Part shown: one piece after another, positions 11,051 through 51,272 of the stretch
Layout of the letters: each line of letters starts with the position of its first letter
Position numbering within the stretch: the first letter of the stretch is position 1
NCBI GenBank assembly: GCA_963847185.1
Contig: CAWJYV010000010.1
Location: 384,001 to 448,000 of the forward strand
Source of the DNA: an uncultured Methanosarcinaceae archaeon
GTDB lineage: Archaea > Halobacteriota > Methanosarcinia > Methanosarcinales > Methanosarcinaceae
Direction of reading: 5' to 3'
DNA length: 64,000 bases
Translations under genes and position numbers: made by a program
The notes under the pieces: generated by a model
Seen by the model: only the letters and a program-made list of their open reading frames with translations
Databases searched by the model: none
Told to the model about the DNA's origin: nothing

Positions 11051-11277
11051 TTTAGAACCCTTGACTCATTACTTTTTTATCTGGGAAATTTGAGGTATTC
11101 TCTTTATGTGACTAGTGAACCTTATTTTCAAAAAGGTTTTTAATGGCATCATTTTTGCAGGAGACAGTAATTCAAATCCTTTTTAGTAAATATTGCTCTT
11201 AAATTGTCAGAATGTTTATCTAACAGATCCAGCAAAAAGCTTCAATTATTTATGTATTTTTACTTGTCACAAAAGAA

Positions 11278-32969: not shown

Positions 32970-33421
32970 CTTAAAGCTCCTGAAGAAACATTTTTAAGGT
33001 TCCGGAAGAAATTATTAAATCTTCGTAAGAAACTTGCTTAAAGCTCCTGAACATCTTCATCTTTTTTGACCGGCAAAAACTTTCTGTATTGAGATATAAA
33101 TAAACTCATTTCGATTTCGAGCAGCTACGGCAGTCCCTGTCTACTACGACAATCTTTTATCGCAGGACCTTACCCCTACCTGCCTGTTCCTGAGTTCTAC
33201 TGTTAAAGTGAAAACCATAAAACCTTTACTTTCTCAGGTTACTGCCCCTCCTTTTAAATAGTCTACCAAAAATGTTTTATTTACAGATACATATTGTTTA
33301 GAGGATACTTCTTCGCATTAAAATATACGAAGAAAGCGATTCTTCGCTTCAGAAGTTGTATCCGGGCAAACGTCTGGGAAGAGAACCAGATGGCCTTCAC
33401 ATTCTGGAGGTAGTAATCCGA

Positions 33422-33598: not shown

Positions 33599-33826
33599 AA
33601 CAAGTTGCTAAAGAATAGGGGACGAAAAAAGCTCAGAAAAGAGGTTTAAAACATAACTATGGATTGAAACATACCTCAAGCCTGGAAATCTGCCGGAAAG
33701 CGCCAAAGATTTTCTTTTTTTGCTTGCCGGAATTAAATGAGCTTAAATAGATCTCATTGAATTTATTTTTATATCTGCTTTTTTTCCTTTGAATGACGAA
33801 GGACAAAATGAATTAACATAGGTTAT

Positions 33827-34031
33827 GAGAGAATTAACGAGAAATTAATGAGAAATTAACGAGAAATTAATGAGAAATTAACGAGAAATTAATGAGAAAT
33901 TAACGAGAAATTAATGAGAATTAACAAGAAATTAATGAGAATTAACAAGAAATTAATGAGAATTAGCGAAATTAATGAAATTAATGAAAGAATAAATGAG
34001 AAATTAATGAAAGAATTAATGGATAATTAAC
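33827..34031. repeat. 11-bp tandem repeat GAGAAATTAA(C/T), degrading rightwards
   Basis: Alternating C/T units give a 22-bp higher-order period; lies just past the pcc1 stop. Confidence 0.95.
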
Positions 34032-34035
34032 AAAA

Positions 34036-34794: not shown

Positions 34795-34895
34795 ACTTCC
34801 CCTGACGAGTTAAGAGTATTTTTCACTTTCGCTCCGCCTGGAGAGTATTTTTTCTGTTTGACAAATCCATGCGGATAGATATTGAAAAAGCTAAA

Positions 34896-35603: not shown

Positions 35604-35940
35604 ATTAGTCGTCCCCTACTCCACCAGAATATAATAAAGAAAATATTTGAAATGTGAACATACTTATTGGATTTACGCAACTGATTTTTAAACGGTTTAG
35701 ATAACAGGCCTCTTGTTAAAACTAAAGAGTTTAAGCTAGACCTTAGTGCATAGATAGACTACTTTGAAATATAAATGAATAATAGAATAAATTTTCCTTA
35801 TAATTAGTAGTGTTTAAAACGAATAAGGACATATTTTTTTTATTTCTTTCCAAATTATCAATAATTCAGTCGACATATATTTTTGAGTATAATTAAAATA
35901 AGGTTTTCTGCCTAGATAGAGGTCCTGGAAAAAAGAGTAA

Positions 35941-36006
35941 GGTTCGAATTTAATCCCTCGCACTAAATTCGTGGGTAATAGGGATCACGAATTTTTTGTA
36001 CGCAAC
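35941..36006 (+). other. tRNA-Leu-like 3' pseudo-target, 14-bp target copy and candidate casposon terminal repeat
   Basis: GGTTCGAATTTAATCCCT|CGCACTAAATTCGT (35959-72)|GGGTAATAGGGATCACGAATTTTTTGTACGCAAC. Confidence 0.65.
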
Positions 36007-36574
36007 AGACAAATTTTCACAGTATACTTTTTTAAAATACTTTCAAGTTAAAAAAGAGTATATTTTATATTTATAAAAATAAACAAATAATAAATTTTTT
36101 GTACGCAAGTGCATAAGTTACGCAAAACCACTTTTTCTAAAGTGGGTAAGTCAAAAATAAATTATCTCATTTTTGGAAGTTGCCTTAACAAAATTTACCT
36201 TTGTTCTCTTTCAAAAATTACCTTACAAAAATGAGAGGGGTTGTTTAAAAGTTTTGCAGTTAAAAATAAGGTTATTTAATATACAGATATGCTAATAAAT
36301 ATTTTGATATGTCCAATCTGTCAAAAATACTTACTAATTCAAAAAATGGTTGACTAAAACTGATTTTTTTGTAGTTTATTTAACTTACTGTATAATCTCA
36401 TTTTTTGGAATTTAGAATATATTATTCTGGATTTTTTTTCTTATATTGACTAAAAACTTGATGAGTTATTTCAAATTAATTTCAATACATAAAGCGATGA
36501 AAAAAGATCAAATCATATAACTATTTACTCTTTTAGTTTGGTAATAAACTTATACTTTTTTATGGGCGAATCTT

Positions 36575-39500
36575 ATGGAACCAGTTACTCAAATAATACT
36601 TGGAAAATCTATATCTTCTGTAATTAGTTATGGAGTTCAAACTCTGTGCAAAAAGATTCCTAATTCGATATTTGCTAAGGAAGAAATTGGGAGTGTAATA
36701 TTTGATAACTCTTACTTTGACTCCTTAGTAGAGAGAGATATTGAATACATTAACAAAGAAATAAATAATTTAGATAACACCTATGAAATAAATTTTGAAT
36801 CAATTTGTACATTTTTCAAATATCCAGAAATAGAATGTATAATACGTCAAATATACGCAGCTATTTTACCTAGGAATTTTACTCATGATAAGAACATCAA
36901 AGAGATTGAAAAAGAACTTGCACTTTTATTATCACTATACTTTGGTGTTAAACAGGAAAAAATTTCGAACCTTGCATCAATATTATTCGGCATATTGATC
37001 GAAGGATGTCAAGAGACACTCAGCAAGCAAATCTTCAATAGTGAACTTACAGCCCTAGCAATTATGTCAAATTATAATAATAAAATAATTCTTGATGAAT
37101 TAGAAGGAATAAAAAGGAATACTGAATTTCTTTTGGAGGAGGAAATAAACTCTAAAGAAATTCATCGCTTTTTTGGGGTATATCGTGATCTTCTGAAAGA
37201 AAGGCATAAATGGATACCAATTTCAAATTTCGAAGGTAGTGTAAGAAAACCTATTGATAAAATCTATGTATGCCCAAATTTTATCAAAAGAAGCAAGGAA
37301 AATAGAGTCAATAAATCCTTAGAGTTTTTTGATTTCCTTTCGAAAATACATCGCGTAGTAATACTAGGCGATCCAGGTAATGGAAAAACCACCTTCACTA
37401 AAAAAATGTGCTATGAGTTGTCTTCTAGATATTCAGACAGACTTTTTGCAGGAAGAGAACTGGTTCCTTTTTTAATAGTGATCAAAGATTATCAAGCAGA
37501 AAAAATGAAAAATAACATTTCAATAATAGATTTCATAAGTGATGGATTAAATCCGAACTTTCAAATAGAACCGCCTAAGGGTGCTTTTAAGTATCTTTTA
37601 TTGAACGGCTATATTTTGTTGATATTTGATGGACTTGATGAGCTTTTAGATACGAGATATAGAGAACAAATAGTATATGAAATTGAGTCATTTTGTACTC
37701 TTTACCCTTCAATTCCAGTAATAGTCACCTCTCGTAGAATAGGATATGAGGAAGCTGCATTAAGAGATGACATGTTTGAGATATATGAAATGACTTCTTT
37801 TAATAGAAATCAAATTAGAGAATATGTTGAAAAATGGTTTAGTTTAGATTATGAATTAAGTTCAAATCAAAGAATTGAAAAAGCAAGGCACTTCATGATT
37901 GAAAGCGAGAAGGTATCTGACCTTCGTTCTAATTCTTTGATGTTATCTTTGATGTGCAACATATATAGACAAGAAAATTACATCCCAGAAAACAGACCCA
38001 AAATTTATCAAAAATGCGCTGAAATGCTTTTCAAAAAATGGGATAGATATAGGGGAATTAATCCCAAGATCACGATACAAGACTCAAAAATAGAATCTCT
38101 CATTTCTCATCTGGCTCATTGGATATATACAAATGAGTTCTCAAAAGAAGGTGTAAGAGAAGAGGAGTTAATATGGAGAGCAACTGAATATCTTTACGGT
38201 TCTACTTATGAAGATCACGATGAAGCCAAAAAGGTGGCAGAAGAATTTGTAACTTTCTCAAAGGGACGCGCATGGATATTTACTGCTATTGGTACTAATA
38301 CAGATCAAGAATTATACCAATTCACACATAGGACTTTTTTAGAATACTTTACAGCAGAATGGTTTTGCAAAAATTTTGAGGATACATTTGAGTTAACTAA
38401 TGAGCTGATTCCAAAAATAAGTAAAAGAGAATGGGATGTAGTGGCACAGTTAGCATTCCAAATAAGGGGTGAATACTCAGAGAATGCAACAGATAAAATA
38501 TTCAACACTTTGTTGAAAGTAGCAAATGTATCAGAGGAAGTAGAATGTGGAAATTTACTCTCTTTTGCAGCAAAAAGCCTAGAGTTTATGAGACCAAGTC
38601 CAAATGTAGTTAAAGAGCTAACAAAAGAGTGTTTTGAGTTTTCTCTTTCTTTTGGAAATAGTATCACTAAGGGTAGGAATATGCAACAGGGGAGTATACT
38701 GACTCTGAATAGAATTAGAGGTCTTCCTATTAGATTAATTGTAGACCTCAGGCATTCTATAAGAGAAAATAAAATAAAAGTTGTTGAAACATTAAAAGAT
38801 TTGATAATAGATTATATTAAAAACAAAAGAGATTTTGAAGCAACTTTAGCAGCCGAAATCATTTTTGAATTGGCATATGGAAGATATGACGAAGCTTTGG
38901 GTAAAAAAGAACAACTATACTGGTCTGAAATATCGAATACTATATTCCAAGAATGTTATCAACTTAACAAACCATTATTTGAAGAAGATCTTCATTTGTG
39001 CCTACAATCTTATAATACCTCAATTATAATAAAAATAGATACAGTTCTGAAATTACATGGGTTAGAAGGCATATTATCTGATTTTACTAATTTCATGAAC
39101 CCAAATTCTCTCCATTATGGAATTGGATACTCTTTATTAGACAAAATATTTCCATTTGATTTCTATTTAATAAGAACAACAACTGATTCATATACAGAGG
39201 AAACTATCAAAAAAACATCAGAAATATTACGAAAAATTGGAGAATTTTGTTTAGAGAGTACTTTGCCTATAAATTTAAAAGAGGATTTGTGCACTATGGT
39301 AAACCATTATAAAAATTTTTTATCTGATATGAAGCTACAAACGCGATTCACAAATGATGGCATAAAGGTGCAAAATAGAATTAGTATTCTGCATAACTAC
39401 TCAGATTCTACAACAATTTTCGGAGCATTTTGCTTACTTGCTATTTTATTTGAGCTAAATAATAGTCCCAGATCTAGAACATTTATTAAACATTTTATAA

Positions 39501-39706
39501 ATCAAGTTGATACAAAACCTTTAAAAAAGATTTTTTTGGTATGGTTGGGGGGCTGTATAGATTGCAATGAAATAAAAAATGAACTTGACATGGTTGGGTT
39601 CTCGAGTAGACAAAAAGAATTCATAGAGAATTGGGCTCAAAAGAACATCCGTTTTTTAAGGAGTAAAAATAAAAGCTTAAAAGATTATGGGATTAATGTA
39701 TCTTAA
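36575..39706 (+). CDS. NACHT (STAND/NLR-like) NTPase, 1043 aa, probable antiviral protein
   Basis: Walker A GDPGNGKT, Walker B LLIFDGLDE, VTSR sensor, NSLMLSLMC and YQFTHRTFLEYFTA; visibly AT-rich. Confidence 0.92.
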   Translation: MEPVTQIILGKSISSVISYGVQTLCKKIPNSIFAKEEIGSVIFDNSYFDSLVERDIEYINKEINNLDNTYEINFESICTFFKYPEIECIIRQIYAAILPRNFTHDKNIKEIEKELALLLSLYFGVKQEKISNLASILFGILIEGCQETLSKQIFNSELTALAIMSNYNNKIILDELEGIKRNTEFLLEEEINSKEIHRFFGVYRDLLKERHKWIPISNFEGSVRKPIDKIYVCPNFIKRSKENRVNKSLEFFDFLSKIHRVVILGDPGNGKTTFTKKMCYELSSRYSDRLFAGRELVPFLIVIKDYQAEKMKNNISIIDFISDGLNPNFQIEPPKGAFKYLLLNGYILLIFDGLDELLDTRYREQIVYEIESFCTLYPSIPVIVTSRRIGYEEAALRDDMFEIYEMTSFNRNQIREYVEKWFSLDYELSSNQRIEKARHFMIESEKVSDLRSNSLMLSLMCNIYRQENYIPENRPKIYQKCAEMLFKKWDRYRGINPKITIQDSKIESLISHLAHWIYTNEFSKEGVREEELIWRATEYLYGSTYEDHDEAKKVAEEFVTFSKGRAWIFTAIGTNTDQELYQFTHRTFLEYFTAEWFCKNFEDTFELTNELIPKISKREWDVVAQLAFQIRGEYSENATDKIFNTLLKVANVSEEVECGNLLSFAAKSLEFMRPSPNVVKELTKECFEFSLSFGNSITKGRNMQQGSILTLNRIRGLPIRLIVDLRHSIRENKIKVVETLKDLIIDYIKNKRDFEATLAAEIIFELAYGRYDEALGKKEQLYWSEISNTIFQECYQLNKPLFEEDLHLCLQSYNTSIIIKIDTVLKLHGLEGILSDFTNFMNPNSLHYGIGYSLLDKIFPFDFYLIRTTTDSYTEETIKKTSEILRKIGEFCLESTLPINLKEDLCTMVNHYKNFLSDMKLQTRFTNDGIKVQNRISILHNYSDSTTIFGAFCLLAILFELNNSPRSRTFIKHFINQVDTKPLKKIFLVWLGGCIDCNEIKNELDMVGFSSRQKEFIENWAQKNIRFLRSKNKSLKDYGINVS

Positions 39707-39951: not shown

Positions 39952-40659
39952 TCAAGTTTTAACCTGACCCCCTAAAACCAAATTTTCCCAAGCCTTAACT
40001 CTCTCCAAAACGTGGCTGTTTAGGGTAAAAGGTTTATCACTCTTGGCGTTCTGTTTCATATAATGTAAAGTACCCTTAGAAAACCCTAACTTTTTCCAAT
40101 CAACATAAGAAATACTCAGGATCTTTTGCCTTATTTCGTGGGAATCAACCCTCTGAACCCCAAATTCAGGGCTAACAAAATCTAATTCCTTTGGTTTTCC
40201 TGTAAGATTATGGGCTAACTCTCTGGCCTTTAGGAGTAATATAGACCCCCAGGTTGTCTGTTTATCCCCGTAATTTACGGGTTTGTTGAGCATGTTAGAG
40301 AACTCGTTAGCTACTTTCTTACCCCCAAGACCCCTTAATCTCAGGTTATAATTCTCGGTTACAATGAAATCTTTCTTATCCATTGTACCATTTTCAACTA
40401 AATTTATGACCGCTAAATCTACAAGAAACCTGAAAGGTTCCTGTAAATCATAGGCTAAACTATTTTTGCTGGGGTTCATTTCATGTAAAAACCCTACATG
40501 AGGGTCTAAACCAACAGTATTTATGACCCTTAAACACTCAGCTTCAAGTAAAGAATACCCATAATTTAGCATGGTACTTACCATATCCCCTGAACCCATA
40601 GGTCTTCTGTACTGGTCAATTCTTGAACAAAACTCGTACTTTTTCGGGATAGCTTTATT
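39952..40659 (-). pseudogene. cas1: 5'-truncated casposase (solo Cas1), fragment 1
   Basis: MLNYGYSLL, GLDPHVGFLH and LAYDLQEPFR motifs plus the tail WKKLGFSKGTLHYMKQNAK. Homologous reading runs back to NKAIPKKYEF (~40659), then TAG at 40678-80; the N-terminal domain is missing. Confidence 0.9.
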
Positions 40660-42070: not shown

Positions 42071-42299
42071 GCCTAACTTGAGAACAGGAGCAGGAAACAC
42101 TAGTCATGTGAACACGGTTGTTTAACTTGAAGGTTTTTAAACCAGAACTCACCAAGCTATTGGTTTTTAAGGCATTCTTTAACTTATGGAAAAATACTCT
42201 TTTTTAGTTTTTGGGAACTCAGAAACAATATTTTTGAAATATTTAAAAAAAGTTTTTGTGAAAAAAATATTTGGTTTTTTCCTTTCTTTAACCCCCTAA

Positions 42300-42590
42300 C
42301 CTTAAAACTTAACCCCCAAAACCAAGTTTTCCCAAGCCTCAACCCTCTCCAAAACGTGGCTGTTAAGTGTAAAAGGTTTATCACTTTTGCGTTTGTTTCA
42401 TGTAATGCAAATTTCCCTTATAGAACCCTAATTTTTTCAAATCAATGTAAGAAATACTCAGGGTCTTTTACCTAATTTCTTGGGAATCAACCCTCTGAAC
42501 CCCAGATTCAAGCAAAGCATACCCATAATTTAGCATGGTATTTACCATGTTTCCTGAACCCATAGGTCTTCTATACTGGCCAATTCTTGA
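42300..42590 (-). pseudogene. cas1: Casposase cas1 fragment 2 (internal deletion, frameshifts)
   Basis: Matches ~39965-40172, joined directly to a match of ~40550-40626. Confidence 0.9.
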
Positions 42591-42679
42591 TTAAACAAAA
42601 CAGAACAAATGATTTTAATATGTAAAAACACGATTTATAAAAATTGGAAGTAGGGAGTAAATTTTGAACTTTTCGAGAT

Positions 42680-43457: not shown

Positions 43458-43506
43458 GCTAAAATTACAAGAAACCTGAAAAGTTTCTGTTAATAATAAG
43501 CTAAAC
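43458..43506 (-). pseudogene. cas1: Casposase cas1 fragment 3 (~50 bp)
   Basis: GCTAAAATTACAAGAAACCTGAAAAGTTTCTGTTAATAATAAGCTAAAC vs 40412-40460 GCTAAATCTACAAGAAACCTGAAAGGTTCCTGTAAATCATAGGCTAAAC. Confidence 0.75.
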
Positions 43507-43641
43507 ATGATTTATTTAAGCCATTGATAGATATATTTTAAAATAAAATAACATTTTTACAAAGAAATAATTAAATATTAAAACTTTCTTATTATAGATA
43601 GAAAAGCTAAAATTCAATAAGCAAAATCGGGGGATGGATAT

Positions 43642-43773
43642 ATGGGGGACGAAATATCCGACGAGGATAAAAGGAGACTGGCTATTTTCCTGCTTGTCTT
43701 CTGTTTACTGACAATAACAATTACAGCATTTATGGATTATTTCACAATCTTTCAGGCCATTTAGACTTTTTAA
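43642..43773 (+). CDS. Single-TM peptide A (40 aa to the TAG; 43 aa if the amber is read through)
   Basis: MGDEISDEDKRRLAIFLLVFCLLTITITAFMDYFTIFQAI-TAG-TF*; gapless paralog at 44917. Confidence 0.65.
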
Positions 43774-43875
43774 CTTCAGGTCAACGTCAAATATACCATT
43801 ATGATAAAACGACAAGAAATATTATGGGAAAGCATTTTATTTGGATGCTCAGGAGAAAACTTAATCAGAGCTCCC

Positions 43876-44163
43876 GAAACTAGTTTTCCCAGGCCTTAAC
43901 CCTCTCCAAAACATGGCTGTTAAGGGTGAAGGGCTTATCATTTTTGGCACCTTGTTTCATGTAATGCAAAGTTCCTTTAGTTTAGGCTGCAATTTTCAGT
44001 TACAATGAAATTCTTCTTATCCATTGTACTTTTTCAGCTAAATTTATGACTGCTAAATATACAAGAAACCAGAAACCTGAAAGGTTCCTGTAAATCTTAG
44101 GCTAAACTGTTTTTGCTCGGGTTCATTTTTATAAAAACCCCGCATGAGGATCTAAACCAACAG
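43876..44163 (-). pseudogene. cas1: Casposase cas1 fragment 4 (a different internal deletion)
   Basis: Matches ~39975-40080, joined to a match of ~40340-40517; contains a small AGAAACC duplication. Confidence 0.9.
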
Positions 44164-44719: not shown

Positions 44720-44916
44720 TATATATTTTAACTTGGTCATATTGACCTGGTCATGACTTCCAATTCATTTTTTATTTCTCTGAATGCCAGGTACTATTTT
44801 AGCGTTTTTTCCCATATAATTCAATATTTTTACAAAGAAATAGATAAATATTGAAACATCATAATTATCAATATTAAAAATAAAATTGACTCGGCAATAA
44901 TATGGGGTGTTGCTAT

Positions 44917-45048
44917 ATGGAAATAGAAATATCCGACAAGGAAAGAAGAAGGATTACTATTTTCCTGCTAATCTCGTGTTTACTGGCAATAACAGTTACA
45001 GCGTGTATATGTAATTTAACAACCTTTCTAGCCGGTTATCTGTTCTAA
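44917..45048 (+). CDS. Single-TM peptide B, 43 aa
   Basis: MEIEISDKERRRITIFLLISCLLAITVTACICNLTTFLAGYLF*; RBS GGGGTG. Confidence 0.65.
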   Translation: MEIEISDKERRRITIFLLISCLLAITVTACICNLTTFLAGYLF

Positions 45049-45181
45049 CTTTCCCCAGGATACTTTAATCTTGAGTTATAATTCTTATTTACTATTTTCA
45101 ATTACAGTGAACTTAAAAAAGGCAATAAATTAGATAGTAAGTTAGTCTTCTATCCTACTATCAATTGCACTTGATTCTATT

Positions 45182-51202: not shown

Positions 51203-51272
51203 ACTGATAGAAAAGGACTGATAAAAAAGGACTGATAAAAAAGAACTGATAAAAAAGAACTGATAAAAAAGA
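51203..51272. repeat. 14-bp tandem repeat ACTGATAAAAAAG(G/A) x5
   Basis: Directly visible, downstream of rpoP. Confidence 0.92.

Follow-up and report, generated by a model that had tools for sequence, protein, structure and literature searches.

A dead casposon end, which adjoins a short piece of tRNA-Leu(UAA) that is not a tRNA gene today, was found in the genome of an uncultured Methanosarcinaceae archaeon (4.04 Mb in 10 contigs, tRNA-Pyl present). It lies in a stretch of 64,000 nucleotides, here called the window (G000:C10:384001-448000), to which all coordinates without a contig or locus name refer. The end stems from a family-2 casposon and is ordinary for the genus. According to the best explanation, it is the tRNA-proximal junction of a decayed, MetMaz-C1-like Methanosarcina casposon that landed on an already dead tRNA-Leu(UAA) remnant, and this explanation as a whole is held to be somewhat probable. 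Its parts differ in strength: that the sequence is a casposon junction is nearly certain, and that the tRNA stems had decayed before the last use of the site is modestly favoured.

The junction starts with GGTTCGAATTTAATCCCTCGCA (35941-35962, plus strand), a stretch of about 22 nt that resembles the T-arm and the acceptor of a tRNA and ends in CGCA. It matches tRNA-Leu(UAA) and retains the last two G's of the T-stem, the T-loop TTCGAAT, the 3′-strand of the acceptor (CCCTCGC) and the discriminator A, while the 3′-strand of the T-stem has decayed to TTAAT. The end of this remnant overlaps with the first 4 bp of the single surviving 14-bp target copy CGCACTAAATTCGT (35959-35972, plus strand), the AT-rich tail of which is TAAATTCGT. 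Exactly 14 bp from the CGCA of the remnant the left, tRNA-proximal terminal inverted repeat (TIR) GGGTAATAGGGATCACGAATTTTTTGTACGCAAC begins (34 nt; 35973-36006, plus strand), with the opening letters GGGTAATAGG. All strings and positions of the initial annotation, which had described a tRNA-Leu 3′-like stretch followed by the left end of a casposon relic, were verified. It had also stated that the casposons of M. mazei are found at tRNA-Leu 3′-ends, duplicate 14 bp from CGCA on and have a TIR that starts with GGG, and these facts agree with passages of the published work. The duplication in M. mazei is 14 bp long, starts with CGCA, is AT-rich in its tail and shares its first 4 bp with the last 4 bp of tRNA-Leu (PMC4779613, PMC6977970), and the terminal repeat of MetMaz-C1 begins with GGG (PMC10359463). 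The target copy in the window has the published length and the published CGCA start (PMC4779613).

A position-weight matrix of the TIR, derived from 49 ends of casposons at other loci, was used to scan both strands of the 64 kb for hits of at least 10 bits. The repeat of the window was the sole hit and reached 37.0 bits. The 34-mer was unique in the window, no match was obtained in any of 100 shuffles, and 30 of its 34 positions were identical to the end in locus L020. It represents a subtype, GGGTAATAGGGATC..., that departs from the repeat of MetMaz-C1 after position 10. Neither the reverse-complement search nor the weight-matrix scan of the 64 kb revealed a right TIR, so that the left repeat stands alone, and a second copy of the 14-mer was absent from the window at up to two mismatches; the same two absences had been reported in the initial annotation. 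Thus only one copy of the duplication is seen.

The same arrangement is present at a real tRNA gene of the same genome, at C4:11129-11233. There, the tRNA-Leu(UAA) gene (11129-11214) is followed by CGCACTAAACTTAT and then by GGGTAATAGGTAACTC...; the 14-bp target site with the CGCA start occupies C4:11210-11223. The adjoining repeat starts with GGGTAATAGG, its first 10 nt are identical to those in the window, and 28 of 31 positions match the TIR printed for MetMaz-C1 (PMC10359463), which was the outcome of the alignment to published casposon ends and to the genome's own tRNA-Leu genes that had been proposed as a check. Besides the repeat in the window, the genome contains three further hits, namely the one at the real tRNA-Leu gene on C4, one at a non-tRNA remnant (C10:305570) and one of the distal type (C10:270377). 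The site at C10:305570, outside the window, is a second relic of this kind. Its repeat (33.6 bits) follows a degenerate site and a T-loop-like remnant, and casposase fragments lie 3-5 kb inside (C10:308680-309059 and 310737-310869).

The interior of the element carries the expected gene in truncated form. A casposase (Cas1) fragment is encoded at 39952-40659 on the minus strand and corresponds to residues 174-408 of a protein of 408 aa (Pfam PF01867, E 1.2e-29, profile positions 186-282; the match spans 39952-40599). The N-terminal 173 residues are missing and the remaining 235 codons, the 3′ 58% of the gene, are free of stops. Because it is truncated, this casposase cannot be active. The fragment lies 4 kb inside and points toward the end, like the intact 408-aa gene of locus L014, and together with the arrangement on C4 and the homology of the TIR this bears out the proposal of a casposon left end with its target copy. 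Of its 235 residues 222 (94%) are identical to a full-length casposase of 408 aa of the closest relative (G009:C55; L011:3661-4887), which is located at a tRNA-Leu(UAA) locus orthologous to that on C4, and its DNA is 93.7% identical to C4:16413-16981. The casposase in L011 is intact and the C4 copy in the genome of the window is broken by stops, therefore the loss is recent.

Additional pieces of the casposase gene were detected by self-matches. A second, internally deleted 3′-fragment (42298-42601, minus strand) is 87% identical to 39961-40168 and 40539-40633, a third 3′-fragment was found at 43856-44163 (minus strand), and smaller pieces are present at 43458-43506 and 45053-45095. The resemblance of 73% between two 230-bp blocks in their flanks (43550-43776 and 44823-45051) makes a local duplication probable, so the extra 3′-pieces would be either decayed tandem copies or products of a local duplication afterwards. 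An intact Cas1 of any kind was absent from the genome, which contains just three Cas1 fragments. PolB, the protein-primed family B DNA polymerase, was not found among the scanned open reading frames at 36-45 kb, and PF03175 yielded 0 matches genome-wide, with a model that is possibly unsuited to this PolB; the missing polymerase fits a relic. Between the end and the casposase fragment a gene for a NACHT/STAND NTPase of 1043 aa is located (36575-39706, plus strand; Pfam PF05729, E 2e-14). A helix-turn-helix/HEAT-repeat gene is named among the casposon core genes in passages of PMC4779613, and in the window the NACHT gene stands in its place. Unlike the window, the intact element of L014 carries a pair of HEAT-repeat genes there, on the opposite strand. 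The NACHT gene either belongs to the cargo or took the place of the HEAT-repeat genes later on. A homologue with 74% DNA identity was noticed at the start of a contig in G007.

Within the end, a repeat had been pointed out in the initial annotation and had been taken for a subterminal binding site. The string TTTTTTGTACGCAA indeed has copies at 35992 and 36095, and TACGCAA is present at 36119; in the longer form AATTTTTTGTACGCAA, the first copy lies inside the TIR (35990-36005) and the second, subterminal copy at 36093-36108 (plus strand). By the statistics of the window the repeat is weak, as 40 of 100 shuffles gave at least two matches of TTTTTTGTACGCAA at up to two mismatches. A search for a second copy of the end's own TIR positions 15-31 (at least 13 of 17 matches) was performed with 48 ends that had 280 nt of interior. 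Nine of the 48 had such a copy, eight at +113 to +124 and one at +160, compared with 0 in the reversed control and 3 in the reverse-complement control, and all nine belong to repeat subtypes that end with ...GTACGC or ...GTGCGC. These alignments show that the subterminal repeat is real and conserved at a fixed distance in related ends, and the support for TTTTTTGTACGCAA thus comes from conservation in relatives and not from the statistics of the window. The idea that the 87-bp stretch between the two copies is a recent insertion was rejected, because ends of other species have a second copy at the same distance. An inverted repeat across the junction had been highlighted as well. It is present, with 9 nt (AAATTCGTG at 35965-35973 and CACGAATTT at 35986-35994), but other junctions do not share it: the mean best complement of 43 junctions was 4.44 compared to 4.29 after re-pairing, and 107 of 500 re-pairings reached the observed mean. 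We take it to be incidental.

It was verified that the neighbor of the end is not a tRNA gene. ARAGORN called 0 tRNAs in the 64-kb window, and Rfam yielded no tRNA match in the region 35700-36200 even at E<=10. Only two of the five pairs of the T-stem can form. The missing 5′-half noticed in the initial annotation was confirmed: tRNA positions 1-63, when aligned locally with the upstream 160 nt, gave a score of 13; the mean of shuffles was 13.0, and 524 of 1000 shuffles reached the score. The site therefore has neither the cloverleaf that tRNA finders detect, nor a paired T-stem, nor a 5′-half, as a functional tRNA-Leu would. It is nevertheless derived from a tRNA. The motif GTTCGAAT-N9-CGCA occurs 12 times in the 4.04-Mb genome, while 0.37 occurrences are expected, and the 11 other copies are located in seven tRNA-Leu genes, two tRNA-Gly genes and two tRNA-Leu fragments. 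The combination GGTTCGAAT-N5-CCCTCGCA exists three times in the genome, in the two real tRNA-Leu(UAA) genes and at the site in the window. The proposal of a tRNA-mimicking site therefore stands for the non-tRNA state of today, but the site is tRNA-derived and not an independent mimic. Compared with tRNA-Leu(UAA), 7 of the 10 T-stem positions are changed and 0 of the 11 positions of the T-loop plus CCCT (Fisher p=0.001), a contrast that was partly selected for, as the site had been located via its T-loop. The non-tRNA state is supported for the present sequence, and the state of the site at the time of insertion can be deduced from this pattern with less firmness. Two more partial tRNA-Leu fragments, neither with an adjacent casposon repeat nor called by ARAGORN, were noticed in the genome, at C6:16094 and C2:4290. 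The former has its start at the anticodon loop, and pieces of a casposase gene lie 1.5 kb from it.

To place the junction in the genus, 59 genomes were scanned with the pattern CGCA-N10-GGGWWATAGG, which makes no demand on the tRNA part. The scan yielded 65 places in 36 of the 59 genomes, while the reversed control yielded 2. With the window included, 59 distinct junctions were sorted into classes, the boundaries of which were set by hand; five places with N10 strings that match the chance class were omitted, and a junction truncated by the end of its contig was excluded. Nine lacked a continuation of the repeat and represent the chance class, and six were tandem junctions with another casposon end upstream. 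Seventeen were located at a tRNA called by ARAGORN (15 Leu, one Gly-CCC, one 'Met-CAT'), and for 27, the window and 26 others, no tRNA was called. At the gathering score Rfam found a tRNA in 0 of these 26, compared with 2 of 3 called controls, among which the 'Met-CAT' one was missed.

In the 26 junctions, conservation compared with tRNA-Leu(UAA) was unequal: the identity was 95% in the T-loop (172/182) and 83% in CCCT (86/104), and it was 65% in each T-stem strand (85/130) and 58% in the variable arm (136/234), in a set that includes orthologous sites in kin, so that its members are not independent, and in which some of the T-stem differences stem from other tRNA-Leu source genes and not from decay. 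A fully paired T-stem was present in 6 of the 26 non-tRNA junctions versus 16 of the 17 at called tRNAs. In G013, two casposons sit in tandem on one 14-bp site beside a partial tRNA-Leu remnant, which has the T-arm variant CTAAT versus TTAAT in the window. Another of the 26, the junction in G012, has a 14-bp site and a 31-nt repeat that equal letter for letter those printed for MetMaz-C1 (PMC10359463). The sequence upstream of it resembles tRNA-Leu but is decayed, with the T-loop box intact and the T-arm variant CTAAT, and neither ARAGORN nor Rfam detected a tRNA there.

How such a site might be used can be outlined by analogy with the published M. mazei enzyme. A casposase of the Cas1 type would recognize a DNA target of about 44 bp that is composed of the T-loop box, nine bases ending in CCCT, the CGCA and ten AT-rich bases. 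It would then cut the two strands 14 bp apart and join the 3′-ends of the TIRs to them, and repair of the gaps would double the 14 bp. Of the resulting structure, only the left 14-bp copy, the left TIR together with the subterminal repeat, and 58% of the casposase gene, on its 3′-side, would have survived. A dead remnant could still serve as a landing pad as long as it had kept the positions that the casposase reads. In passages of PMC6977970, a target that consists of the 14-bp site by itself, or of the site extended by 15 bp of tRNA, performs poorly, whereas a site with 30 bp of tRNA-Leu works, and changes of the CGCA, of the preceding 4 bp or of an upstream block ('bp 12-17' of a 40-mer) abolish or severely reduce integration. 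As the T-loop box is located 10 to 18 bp ahead of the CGCA, an extension of 15 bp would cut it. We infer that the upstream block is the T-loop, which would make the T-loop box the upstream determinant. Of the target defined in vitro, the window has the CGCA, the CCCT, the AT-rich tail and, as the putative upstream motif, the T-loop box, all at the spacing of tRNA-Leu.

Taken together, the arrangement on C4, the Cas1 content, the tandem array in G013, the uneven decay, the 26 junctions and the biochemistry argue for the best explanation, and against it counts that the duplication itself is not visible, as neither a second copy nor a right repeat is present, and that the searches in relatives gave no empty site. 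The order of events can be approached by the following argument. After an insertion no force keeps the target intact, yet at this site the stems are ruined while the T-loop box, CCCT, CGCA and the repeat are untouched, and hence the stems had probably been ruined before the site was last used.

The surroundings of the end were compared with relatives. The conserved left flank stops near 34861 and the conserved right flank restarts near 51235, with 16.4 kb between them. Four relatives have 0.74 to 5.3 kb between these flanks, and the shortest gap, the 0.74 kb of G012, lacks a tRNA-like sequence. In seven syntenic relative loci (L003-L009), neither a tRNA nor, at up to two mismatches, the remnant was found, and the remnant was likewise absent at this stringency from the contig of G009 that carries the left flank (L010); the contigs of G009 break at 33206 and 45160. 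Searching for the empty site in relatives, as had been suggested, remained without success: it was found neither in the syntenic loci nor in exact-match scans of metagenome contigs (0 matches) and of genome contigs, which yielded 0 matches for the site of the window and one for its degenerate form (L076). We take the latter to be the occupied junction of G013:C29 that had already been counted. The block may thus have come to this locus by rearrangement and not by integration. The look-alike junction in G013 was rejected as an ortholog, because its flanks correspond to sequences on C4 and C6 in the window's genome, and orthology with G009:C414 is unsupported, as the match is limited to 109 bp at 75%. 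An array of 11-bp tandem repeats, AATTAACGAGA and AATTAATGAGA, with about 11 or more units occupies 33810-34034 in the region of the conserved left flank. The gap of G012 that replaces the island contains three tandem 17-bp units (L005 10557-10610), each of which begins with GGGATAT and lacks a CGCA in front.

Several alternative histories were weighed. That a tRNA-like end and a casposon-like repeat arose by chance in AT-rich intergenic DNA is refuted and has practically no probability left. The insignificance of the 14-mer repeat within the window would agree with chance, but the 34-mer is unique, all 11 other copies of the tRNA motif are tRNA genes or fragments thereof, and homologous junctions exist in 36 of 59 genomes versus 2 control hits, so that chance is excluded for the main features. 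According to another alternative, the casposon inserted beside a live, full-length tRNA-Leu(UAA) gene, which later lost its 5′-part and decayed, and the conserved blocks survived by luck or reflect a bias in finding the site. With two other tRNA-Leu(UAA) genes in the genome a third would have been dispensable, a full-length tRNA-Leu pseudogene, not called by ARAGORN, is indeed present at C10:644150, and in a crude local alignment the similarity of seven of the 27 non-tRNA junctions reaches back to tRNA position 14 or earlier; these seven are decayed whole genes, which indicates that whole genes do decay at such sites. Yet the decay in the window is uneven (7 of 10 versus 0 of 11 positions, p=0.001) beside a well-kept repeat of 37 bits, the 5′-part cannot be told from shuffles by alignment, and the seven syntenic loci have neither tRNA nor remnant. 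Insertion beside a live gene is thus considered quite unlikely.

The origin of a target that was already dead is a separate matter. In the same alignment, seven of the 27 junctions start at tRNA positions 32-40, in or near the anticodon loop, and 13, including the window, match from the T-arm on only. A sharp edge combined with a near-perfect 3′-part was seen in L020, L062, L046, L014, L021 (tRNA start 32-36) and L015, the last of which is excluded from the 27 because its repeat starts with C. An edge at the anticodon loop is what the att site of a tyrosine-integrase element leaves behind. The target could accordingly have been a partial 3′-copy of tRNA-Leu, from the anticodon loop to the 3′-end, that was left by such an att site and was then used by the casposon, which would give the best explanation's dead target one possible origin and would be no alternative to the casposon reading. 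Several junction remnants start sharply at or just before the anticodon loop and have a near-perfect 3′-part, the fragment C6:16094 of the same genome shares its boundary with G009:C414 (L015), and passages of PMC4779613 describe integrase elements in the M. mazei tRNA-Leu gene, the att site of which coincides in part with the casposon target. Against this origin, the likeness to a tRNA in the window ends at the T-arm, and none of the 10 open reading frames scanned at 27-50 kb encodes an integrase. For the window this origin is rated as somewhat unlikely.

The remnant and the left part of the casposon may also have been carried in together by a larger insertion, by recombination between relics or by a segmental duplication, and arrival by rearrangement is a live rival. 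It would account for the distance of 16.4 kb between flanks that are 0.74 to 5.3 kb apart in four relatives, and for the absence of the remnant from the syntenic loci of relatives. The 93.7% identity of the casposase fragment to that of C4, in spite of ends of different subtypes, the local duplication of casposase pieces and a casposase piece in opposite orientation at the same locus of G016 point in the same direction. However, a donor copy of the remnant plus repeat is absent from the rest of the genome, and the genes on either side of the nearest look-alike, in G013, have their counterparts on other contigs of the window's genome. Such an arrival is rated as somewhat unlikely.

Compared with known systems, the junction on an already dead remnant, which is the preferred reading, is closest to the MetMaz-C1-type family-2 casposons (PMC4779613, PMC6977970, PMC10359463), as far as passages of these sources go. 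Common to both are the 14-bp CGCA target with an AT-rich tail, the GGG start of the repeat, the position at a tRNA-Leu 3′-end, the Cas1 casposase gene, the frequency of relics and solo repeats and the reuse of one site in tandem. Unlike the published elements, the element in the window is dead, with a casposase that lacks residues 1-173, a right end that is missing and a PolB that was not found, it has the GGGTAATAGGGATC... subtype of the repeat, and its neighbor is a remnant of about 22 nt and not a gene. In passages of the literature, the site of MetMaz-C1 in M. mazei is called the intergenic region IR1 (PMC4779613) and the site tLEU2 is named for a partial similarity to tRNA-Leu (PMC10359463); the comparisons of 'intergenic' sites in these passages concern the 14-bp sites only. 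To this group, which also includes the tandem pair of Methanosarcina sp. 2.H.A.1B.4, the window is linked by the G012 junction, which equals the MetMaz-C1 print, but the site in the window is at another locus. This suggests that 'intergenic' casposon sites are tRNA-derived. A search of the casposon literature by title and abstract for 'tRNA-like' or tRNA 'pseudogene' sites returned nothing on this point. The leader-repeat junction of CRISPR, which is used by Cas1-Cas2, similarly combines an upstream motif with a few fixed bases where integration occurs, next to which stands a unit that is duplicated (PMC6977970), but the window has no Cas2, array or spacers and is a transposon end, not an immune locus.

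That non-tRNA remnants which keep the T-loop, CCCT and CGCA serve as landing pads is a modest extension of the published biochemistry and agrees with the passages at hand. More tentatively, and still short of probable, Methanosarcina casposons may need a short DNA signature, composed of the T-loop box, nine bases with CCCT at their end and the CGCA, rather than tRNA genes, with many 'intergenic' sites, including that of MetMaz-C1, being dead pieces of tRNA-Leu that have retained it and many of these being att-type integrase fragments. If this were true, other mobile elements would make and spread landing pads that are reused in tandem, and the sites would be a natural counterpart of the CRISPR leader-repeat junction, loosed from its original gene. 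The 27 junctions represent a natural mutagenesis series, of which the site in the window is a clear case, in which T-loop, CCCT and CGCA are kept and the stems drift, and which offers a testable definition of the upstream determinant that was left open by structural work. CGCA and CCCT are needed in vitro (PMC6977970), and so is an upstream motif, for which the T-loop box is a fitting candidate.

A few further observations were made during the scans. Locus L019 (G031:C1:848510-851533, junction at 1501) has a tRNA-Gly(CCC) gene, on which ARAGORN and Rfam (58.8 bits) agree, and at the 3′-end of this gene a CGCA site with a casposon end; the targets named in the passages of the publications at hand are tRNA-Leu and, for A. 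boonei, tRNA-Pro only. In L050 (G031:C1:2762035-2762858, junction at 401) the end lies beside a tRNA-Leu-like gene that ARAGORN calls tRNA-Met(CAT) and that is below the Rfam gathering score; possibly it is a pseudogene, or it descends from tRNA-Leu and has acquired another anticodon. The repeat at L016 1-119 (G016:C54), about 120 bp long, has more than 20 copies with 71-81% identity across the contigs of the window's genome and is possibly a miniature mobile element. This genome also contains ten tRNA-Cys(GCA) genes, most of which are arranged in two clusters, on C1 and C8.
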